Numbered from the stretch's first letter, positions 10,582-11,913 are shown. The stretch is DNA of 64,000 nucleotides from Escherichia coli (GCF_017348835.2 NZ_CP071375.1), one strand, 5' to 3'. Translations and numbers: made by a program. Notes: generated by a model from the letters alone, not told the origin.

Positions 10582-11880
10582 ATGCAAGTTTCAGTTGAAA
10601 CCACTCAAGGCCTTGGCCGCCGTGTAACGATTACTATCGCTGCTGACAGCATCGAGACCGCTGTTAAAAGCGAGCTGGTCAACGTTGCGAAAAAAGTACG
10701 TATTGACGGCTTCCGCAAAGGCAAAGTGCCAATGAATATCGTTGCTCAGCGTTATGGCGCGTCTGTACGCCAGGACGTTCTGGGTGACCTGATGAGCCGT
10801 AACTTCATTGACGCCATCATTAAAGAAAAAATCAATCCGGCTGGCGCACCGACTTATGTTCCGGGCGAATACAAGCTGGGTGAAGACTTCACCTACTCTG
10901 TAGAGTTTGAAGTTTATCCGGAAGTTGAACTGCAGGGTCTGGAAGCGATCGAAGTTGAAAAACCGATCGTTGAAGTGACCGACGCTGACGTTGACGGCAT
11001 GCTGGATACTCTGCGTAAACAGCAGGCGACCTGGAAAGAAAAAGACGGCGCTGTTGAAGCAGAAGACCGCGTAACCATCGACTTCACCGGTTCTGTAGAC
11101 GGCGAAGAGTTCGAAGGCGGTAAAGCGTCTGATTTCGTACTGGCGATGGGCCAGGGTCGTATGATCCCGGGCTTTGAAGACGGTATCAAAGGCCACAAAG
11201 CTGGCGAAGAGTTCACCATCGACGTGACCTTCCCGGAAGAATACCACGCAGAAAACCTGAAAGGTAAAGCAGCGAAATTCGCTATCAACCTGAAGAAAGT
11301 TGAAGAGCGTGAACTGCCGGAACTGACTGCAGAATTCATCAAACGTTTCGGCGTTGAAGATGGTTCCGTAGAAGGTCTGCGCGCTGAAGTGCGTAAAAAC
11401 ATGGAGCGCGAGCTGAAGAGCGCCATCCGTAACCGCGTTAAGTCTCAGGCGATCGAAGGTCTGGTAAAAGCTAACAACATCGACGTACCGGCTGCGCTGA
11501 TCGACAGCGAAATCGACGTTCTGCGTCGTCAGGCTGCACAGCGTTTCGGTGGCAACGAAAAACAAGCTCTGGAACTGCCGCGCGAACTGTTCGAAGAACA
11601 GGCTAAACGCCGCGTAGTTGTTGGCCTGCTGCTGGGCGAAGTTATCCGCACCAACGAGCTGAAAGCTGACGAAGAGCGCGTGAAAGGCCTGATCGAAGAG
11701 ATGGCTTCTGCGTACGAAGATCCGAAAGAAGTTATCGAGTTCTACAGCAAAAACAAAGAACTGATGGACAACATGCGCAATGTTGCTCTGGAAGAACAGG
11801 CTGTTGAAGCTGTACTGGCGAAAGCGAAAGTGACTGAAAAAGAAACCACTTTCAACGAGCTGATGAACCAGCAGGCGTAA
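10582..11880 (+). CDS. tig: Trigger factor (ribosome-associated chaperone/PPIase), 432 aa
   Basis: ORF-track full length; [25 protein letters not shown]... Confidence 0.97.
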
Positions 11881-11913
11881 TTTACGCAGCATAACGCGCT
11901 AAATTCGCACAAA

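Follow-up and report, generated by a model that had tools for sequence, protein, structure and literature searches.

The stretch of Escherichia coli DNA analysed here (64 kb, referred to below as the window) carries the gene order yajQ-cyo-ampG-bolA-tig-clpP-clpX-lon-hupB-ppiD ... acrAB ... dnaX-recR-htpG-adk ... ushA-ybaK-ybaP. The window is collinear with E. coli strain PE164, and all 55 RefSeq CDSs of that strain translate cleanly within it. Long open reading frames (ORFs) run on the minus strand opposite tig, htpG and lon, and a fourth of the same kind, absent from the initial annotation, lies opposite ppiD (Table 1). The coordinates and lengths previously given for the first three ORFs (433, 530 and 312 codons, respectively) are exact. 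The accompanying description of the antisense strand as open over the full length of each gene holds for tig, in which 428 of 432 codons are free of antisense stops, but not for htpG (520 of 624 codons) or lon (365 of 784, codons 193-558).

Table 1. Sense genes, antisense ORFs and associated sequence elements in the E. coli window
Feature	Position	Strand	Description
tig CDS (trigger factor)	10582..11880	+	432 aa; RefSeq annotation; TIGR00115 E=7e-143; CAI 0.778; real gene
tig antisense ORF	10591..11892	-	433 codons plus stop; ATG start; very probably a shadow ORF and not a gene
tig Ser4 TCA	10591..10593	+	sole stop-complement codon of tig; gives the TGA stop of the antisense ORF
ATG opening the tig antisense ORF	11890..11892	-	12 nt past the tig stop codon, before the tig terminator; no Shine-Dalgarno; unconserved
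tig intrinsic terminator hairpin	11911..11942	+	14 pairs, followed by a T run
lon CDS	14337..16691	+	RefSeq start; CAI 0.559; 10 stop-complement codons, none between codons 193 and 558
lon antisense ORF	14913..15851	-	312 codons; GTG start; opposite the middle of lon; stop-free stretch 14916-16010
htpG CDS	50580..52454	+	CAI 0.684; CTG in 57 of 66 Leu codons; no TTA, no CTA; TCA at codons 11 and 104
htpG antisense ORF	50889..52481	-	530 codons; ATG 27 nt past the htpG stop codon; no Shine-Dalgarno
ppiD antisense ORF	17376..18149	-	257 codons; TTG start; fourth ORF of the same kind

The host genes had been characterized as highly expressed and of an essential type. The first part of this description agrees with the codon adaptation of tig and htpG, with lon being intermediate; the second part is loose, because tig, htpG and lon are all dispensable in E. 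coli. In the complete RefSeq genome of E. coli GENOMIC22-004 (NZ_CP119120.1; tig at 1501-2599), approximately 197 bp are missing from within tig (query positions 375-571); this allele is annotated as a frameshifted pseudogene and is consistent with the dispensability of tig. The start of lon can be placed at two positions, the RefSeq ATG at 14337 or the GTG at 14292 that opens the mechanical ORF, and the Shine-Dalgarno pairing of the annotated start is weak (-3.3 kcal/mol).

Several RNA elements are also found in the window. The sRNA sraA (Rfam, 106.7 bits) occupies positions 14170-14265 of the minus strand, between clpX and lon. This known minus-strand transcript lies downstream, in the direction of that strand, of the lon antisense ORF; there is no indication of a link between the two. 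The DnaX frameshifting element (48816-48880, plus strand), naRNA4 (56803-56881, plus strand), sroB between ybaK and ybaP (62561-62644, plus strand) and the 4.5S SRP RNA ffs (31916-32012, plus strand) are all located where expected.

The register of the four antisense ORFs is revealing of their origin. All four of the ORFs opposite tig, htpG, lon and ppiD are codon-aligned with their host gene (phase 0), such that the first position of an antisense codon lies opposite the third position of a sense codon. Because of the structure of the genetic code, TAA, TAG and TGA can occur in this antisense frame only opposite the leucine codons TTA and CTA and the serine codon TCA, and every antisense stop in the codon-aligned frame does map to one of these three codons. 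An open antisense frame is therefore simply a sense gene that lacks TTA, CTA and TCA. In tig, CTG makes up 30 of the 31 leucine codons, TTA and CTA do not occur, and TCA is used once, at codon 4; counted from its annotated start, lon contains 10 such stop-complement codons. The antisense frames of tig and htpG end near the sense start because of the TCA at tig codon 4 and those at htpG codons 11 and 104. The TCA at tig codon 4 is kept in all 20 Enterobacteriaceae-level sequences compared (E. coli and 19 orthologues), and the TCA at htpG codon 11 (50610-50612) is present in E. coli and in six of seven orthologues. These rare 5' TCA codons may reflect special choices at gene starts, of codon (a weaker or different preference) and of structure.

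The scarcity of the three codons is a general feature of strongly codon-adapted genes. In a high-expression reference set made up of 30 ribosomal-protein, tufA, fusA and rpoA genes of strain K-12, TTA and CTA account for 3.4% and 0.5% of leucine codons and TCA for 3.9% of serine codons, as compared with 9.8%, 3.7% and 10.2%, respectively, in the 55 genes of the window. Among genes of at least 150 codons, the density of TTA, CTA and TCA drops as CAI rises (rho -0.885), and the same correlation is found when CAI is calculated without leucine and serine (rho -0.66, p=2e-6). The CAI of tig ranks fourth among 85 genes, followed at some distance by those of htpG and lon (Table 1); the open stretch of lon reaches 0.60. 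In the same set of 85 genes, the codon-aligned antisense frame is at least 95% open in seven genes of at least 200 codons, namely tufA (394 codons), tig, rplB, rpsC, adk, rplC and rplD.

Whether the antisense runs exceed chance hinges entirely on the null model. When codons are drawn according to the average usage of the window, runs as long as those observed are improbable for tig (P=0.0015), htpG (P<1e-4) and lon (P=0.002). When synonymous codons are instead resampled from genes matched by CAI, itself computed without leucine and serine, the probability of a run at least as long as that observed becomes 0.39 for tig, 0.05 for htpG, 0.02 for lon and 0.28 for ppiD, all of these P values being uncorrected for the choice of three or four ORFs among 55 genes. 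The run lengths are likewise not unlikely given the codon usage of the 30-gene K-12 reference set. The htpG and lon runs are thus nominally long under the matched null before any correction, and the stop-complement codons themselves are not depleted in any of the four genes: the observed counts of TTA, CTA and TCA together, set against those expected from CAI-matched usage, are 1 and 0.9 in tig, 2 and 4.3 in htpG, 10 and 11.6 in lon, and 6 and 5.7 in ppiD.

A second antisense ORF in tig occupies a different frame (10914-11426, minus strand) and encodes a hypothetical product of 170 aa that is rich in Ser, Pro and Ala. With 176 codons, its open run exceeds that of every other gene of the 85 in this frame. 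This ORF was nevertheless rejected as a notable feature, as runs of this kind are not unusual under a shuffle of codon order (P=0.17) or a permutation of synonymous codons (P=0.27), and 12 of 19 relatives do not keep it intact.

The phylogenetic distribution of the open frame was followed in 80 loci that contain tig together with clpP, clpX and lon, obtained from one scan of species-representative genomes and covering the Enterobacteriaceae, Erwiniaceae, Yersiniaceae, Morganellaceae, Vibrionaceae and Pasteurellaceae. Across these 80 orthologues, the state of the tig antisense frame tracks the preferred leucine codon of the lineage. More specifically, the frame contains 0-3 stops in the CTG-using, Enterobacteriaceae-level relatives, 8-25 in Proteus, Providencia, Moellerella and Arsenophonus, 16-20 in most species of Vibrio and Photobacterium, which prefer CTA, and 26-34 in the Pasteurellaceae, which use TTA. 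The sharpest comparative result is provided by the tig gene of Vibrio, in that CTA is enriched in the very gene that exhibits the strongest codon bias in E. coli. For the pooled Vibrionaceae, CTA represents 49% of tig leucine codons versus 22% in clpX and 15% in lon (tig being located at about 6001-7296 of each locus), and as a result of this enrichment the antisense frame is filled with stops. Two members of the family, Vibrio albus and Grimontia hollisae, use CTG in tig and possess longer open antisense runs than the other Vibrionaceae. Most species of Vibrio and Photobacterium encode about half or more of the tig leucines with CTA, a lineage-specific preference that is the opposite of the CTG preference of E. 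coli.

The frame is also lost among much closer relatives of E. coli. At 90-93% Tig identity, Enterobacter asburiae, Phytobacter, Superficieibacter, Mangrovibacter, Siccibacter and Enterobacter sp. BIGb0383 all carry stops in the tig antisense frame, at various sites; codon 382 is a stop-complement codon in five of these, all but Siccibacter. Of 16 close relatives, 10 have 1-7 stops within the open stretch of lon. Seven htpG orthologues were collected by protein search and contig look-ups and placed in a protein-guided codon alignment, and the longest open antisense run was found to vary from 214 to 613 codons. It extends over 613 codons in Enterobacter hormaechei and Kosakonia and over 429 codons in strain BIT-l23, and the frame is broken in Salmonella enterica diarizonae, Atlantibacter and an Erwinia sp. 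(longest runs of 232, 260 and 214 codons, respectively). An open frame in most of the CTG-preferring Enterobacterales is forecast by the codon-bias model and equally by a conserved gene. In three E. coli strains with approximately 98.7% identity the tig antisense frame is intact, a divergence that is too low to separate the two explanations.

The initial annotation had reported that the antisense ORFs lack an RBS context, and the calculated pairing with the anti-Shine-Dalgarno sequence agrees. The duplex energies at the antisense starts are -1.4 (tig), +0.2 (htpG) and -2.0 kcal/mol (lon), compared with medians of -6.2 kcal/mol for the 55 annotated genes and -2.5 kcal/mol for random ATG triplets; over 90% of the genes in the window therefore pair more strongly than the antisense starts, which do no better in this respect than random ATG triplets. 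A search upstream of the tig antisense ATG at 11892 found no promoter-like site on the minus strand. Moreover, all 19 closest relatives lack an in-frame ATG past the end of tig, and in 13 of the 19 no in-frame start of any kind is found there.

The hypothetical products had been described as rich in Phe, Leu, Val, Arg and Asn. Enrichment in Phe (13-18%), Leu, Val and Arg was found; the other abundant residues are Ala and Gln. The richness in Phe arises because the antisense codons are complements of the commonest sense codons, GAA yielding TTC and AAA yielding TTT, and the TTC and TTT codons of this origin supply 77 residues of the tig antisense product (433 in all). No Pfam family matches the tig antisense product at E<=1, and the htpG and lon products give sub-threshold noise only. 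A search of NCBIfam likewise gave no significant match for the antisense products, versus TIGR00115 at 7e-143 for the sense frame of tig. None of the products matches PF10712 (NAD-GH), the family derived from antisense translation of dnaK, and an exact look-up of the three antisense sequences in a collection of 15 billion proteins returned none of them.

Comparison of rare codons offers a view of whether antisense stops in particular are avoided. Distinct alignment columns with stop-complement codons were counted alongside those with other rare leucine or serine codons, giving 5 and 16, respectively, in tig and 74 and 181 in clpX and lon combined (Fisher p=0.80), and the corresponding ratio in the reference set is 24 to 82. 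The similarity of the tig ratio to that of clpX and lon indicates that the stop-complement codons are avoided no more than other rare leucine and serine codons.

Naive Ka/Ks values for an overlapping frame are confounded by the sense gene and were for this reason compared with those of control antisense frames, the controls being the whole clpP, clpX and lon genes, in which the antisense frame is interrupted along much or all of its length. The antisense Ka/Ks is 2.29 in tig versus 2.31 opposite clpP, 2.16 opposite clpX and 2.82 opposite lon, and it ranges from 2.1 to 3.7 in htpG. Thus, no purifying selection on the antisense proteins is seen, their values (2.1-3.7) being equal to those of the control frames. 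In a codon-aligned frame, changes that are synonymous in the sense gene are almost never synonymous on the antisense strand, and OLGenie-type ratios (dNN/dNS or dSN/dSS) are consequently low in power. Between E. coli and the 19 closest genera, amino acid identity is 0.71 for the tig antisense product and 0.92 for Tig itself. Within E. coli (98.7% identity), 13 of 17 tig substitutions fall at sense position 3, and together they produce 2 changes in Tig versus 14 in the antisense product.

Reduced synonymous variability of the sense gene had been put forward by the initial annotation as a sign that would support a real overlapping gene. Such a reduction exists in tig, with a median dS of 0.52 versus 0.85-1.10 in clpX, lon and clpP, but it is not specific to the antisense ORF, and no reduction is found in htpG. 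Across nine genes of the same loci, dS drops as CAI rises (rho -0.83, p=0.005), and hupB exhibits a dS of 0.45, lower than that of tig, even though its longest antisense run is only 66 codons. It is because the tig value lies on this trend, and that of hupB lower still, that the reduction is considered unspecific. The dS of htpG is 0.78-0.94 in comparison with most genera (at about 90% amino acid identity) and 1.27 in comparison with the Erwinia sp. Within lon, the open stretch has a dS of 0.80 versus 0.98 in the rest of the gene (Wilcoxon p=0.003), and it also has a higher CAI (0.60 versus 0.53 elsewhere) and a lower dN, as expected of a conserved protein core.

Long antisense ORFs of this type have been described before. 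Mir et al. 2012 (PMC3454372) modelled E. coli and concluded that long ORFs in frame -1 follow statistically from the codons used by very highly expressed genes, an effect that they credit to Silke and to Merino et al. 1994. Moshensky and Alexeevski (10.1101/724807) found that most antisense ORFs with stop avoidance lie in frame -1. The ORFs examined here share with the frame -1 shadow ORFs of Merino 1994 and Silke 1997, as cited by Mir et al. (PMC3454372), the same frame, the same cause (scarce TTA, CTA and TCA), hosts of high CAI and the same organism, and there is no substantive difference between them; tig, htpG and lon were not found named in Mir et al. 2012 (PMC3454372) or in Moshensky and Alexeevski (10.1101/724807). 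A close parallel is offered by the antisense ORFs of dnaK/hsp70, once annotated as NAD-specific glutamate dehydrogenase (PF10712; 10.1101/724807), which are likewise very long, in frame -1 and opposite a well-expressed, conserved chaperone gene. The dnaK ORFs also resemble the present ones in having Ka/Ks values without purifying selection and a presence scattered over the phylogeny, and for them the same conclusion of an artefact was reached (10.1101/724807). Unlike the dnaK case, the ORFs described here involve other host genes, and their products match neither PF10712 nor any other Pfam family and are uncatalogued as exact sequences.

A different group of precedents consists of long ORFs embedded antisense in annotated genes that have experimental support as overlapping genes, namely pop, asa, laoB and ano of EHEC (PMC7103648, PMC6294744, PMC5810103, PMC5960689) and olg1 and olg2 of Pseudomonas aeruginosa (PMC8850804). 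The evidence for these genes consists of RNA-seq, Ribo-seq or mass spectrometry signals and promoter and RBS elements, to which olg1 and olg2 add stop-codon depletion and purifying selection (PMC8850804). In contrast, the ORFs opposite tig, htpG and lon lack the sequence-based marks of such genes: no promoter or RBS, no conserved start or integrity of the frame, no excess depletion of stops and no purifying selection were found.

These precedents frame the alternatives that have to be weighed. At least one of the antisense ORFs might be a functional overlapping gene restricted to Escherichia and its close relatives, as in the EHEC or olg1/olg2 cases. The unusual length of the ORFs, their openness in many CTG-preferring Enterobacterales, the reduced dS of tig and the nominally long htpG and lon runs all point in this direction, as does the existence elsewhere of translated antisense ORFs of similar length (PMC8850804). 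Other observations speak against such a gene. The length is that expected from matched codon usage, and other rare codons are avoided at least as much as the three stop-complement codons; close relatives, Salmonella among them for htpG, have an interrupted frame; the dS reduction falls on the CAI trend; and the antisense Ka/Ks of about 2.3 is the same as in control antisense frames. Together with the missing Shine-Dalgarno and promoter-like sites, the unconserved start codon and the lack of any family match, this makes a functional overlapping gene appear very unlikely. The names tig, htpG and lon do not occur in the text or the 18 supplementary files of a survey of embedded overlapping genes in E. 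coli (10.1101/2020.11.18.388249), a weak argument given that its tables may use locus tags, and a literature search found no antisense gene opposite htpG.

Alternatively, the ORFs could be non-functional and yet at times be translated from pervasive antisense transcripts, giving rise to long Phe-rich polypeptides as noise. Pervasive antisense transcription and translation have been reported in bacteria (10.1101/2020.02.20.958058), the locus contains a known minus-strand transcript in sraA (14170-14265), and any ribosome that initiated in such a frame would meet no stop. Against this stand the very weak Shine-Dalgarno pairing, the unconserved start and the absence of a promoter-like site upstream of the tig antisense ATG, and head-on transcription against highly expressed genes should disfavour a full-length antisense RNA, so that translation of this kind seems unlikely. 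A further proposal would see in the open frame a relic of ancient coding on the complementary strand, as was once suggested for Hsp70/dnaK. Chaperone genes do recur among the hosts (dnaK in the literature, tig and htpG here), and the idea was raised by Merino et al. 1994, as cited by Mir et al. (PMC3454372). The lineage pattern nevertheless contradicts it, as another preferred leucine codon abolishes the frame in the Vibrionaceae, Pasteurellaceae and Morganellaceae; moreover, the frame is also open opposite ribosomal-protein genes, tufA and adk, and the Pfam and NCBIfam scans gave no homologue or family for the antisense products. An ancient relic can hardly be given any probability at all.

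The antisense ORFs opposite tig, htpG and lon are thus almost certainly best regarded as shadow ORFs that arise passively from the translational codon bias of well-expressed genes. As judged from sequence analysis, they exhibit the traits expected of shadow ORFs, including a codon-aligned frame, strong codon adaptation of the host, a length in keeping with the matched null, and loss of the frame in lineages whose preferred leucine or serine codons are stop-complements. The initial annotation had favoured a codon-usage artefact, and the matched null model, the lineage pattern, the selection tests and the missing expression signals all support that view. Under strong translational selection in E. 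coli, leucine is encoded almost solely by CTG and serine by TCT, TCC or AGC. TTA, CTA and TCA therefore nearly vanish, which leaves the codon-aligned antisense frame open for hundreds of codons. An ATG that happens to lie in the 3' untranslated region, shortly after the end of the sense gene, opens the frame. Nothing indicates that these antisense frames are transcribed, translated or selected. There is perhaps a very slight chance that the tig or htpG antisense frame is weakly, possibly conditionally, translated in Escherichia and that a young, lineage-restricted, Phe-rich protein is gaining function; if this were true, frames opened by codon bias would constitute raw material for de novo gene birth.

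The phenomenon is already known, and tig, htpG and lon are individual instances of it. It carries a caution for the annotation of bacterial genomes, namely that arithmetic alone tends to place the longest unannotated ORFs opposite those genes whose expression is highest. As a consequence of this arithmetical origin, shadow ORFs will be flagged as "significant" by ORF length alone or by a null model in which codon usage is averaged over the genome. The "glutamate dehydrogenase" family PF10712, derived from dnaK antisense ORFs, illustrates that databases have taken in such ORFs in the past. The comparison between lineages, in which the tig gene of Vibrio is rich in CTA and its antisense frame is accordingly full of stops, provides a clean demonstration of the cause.
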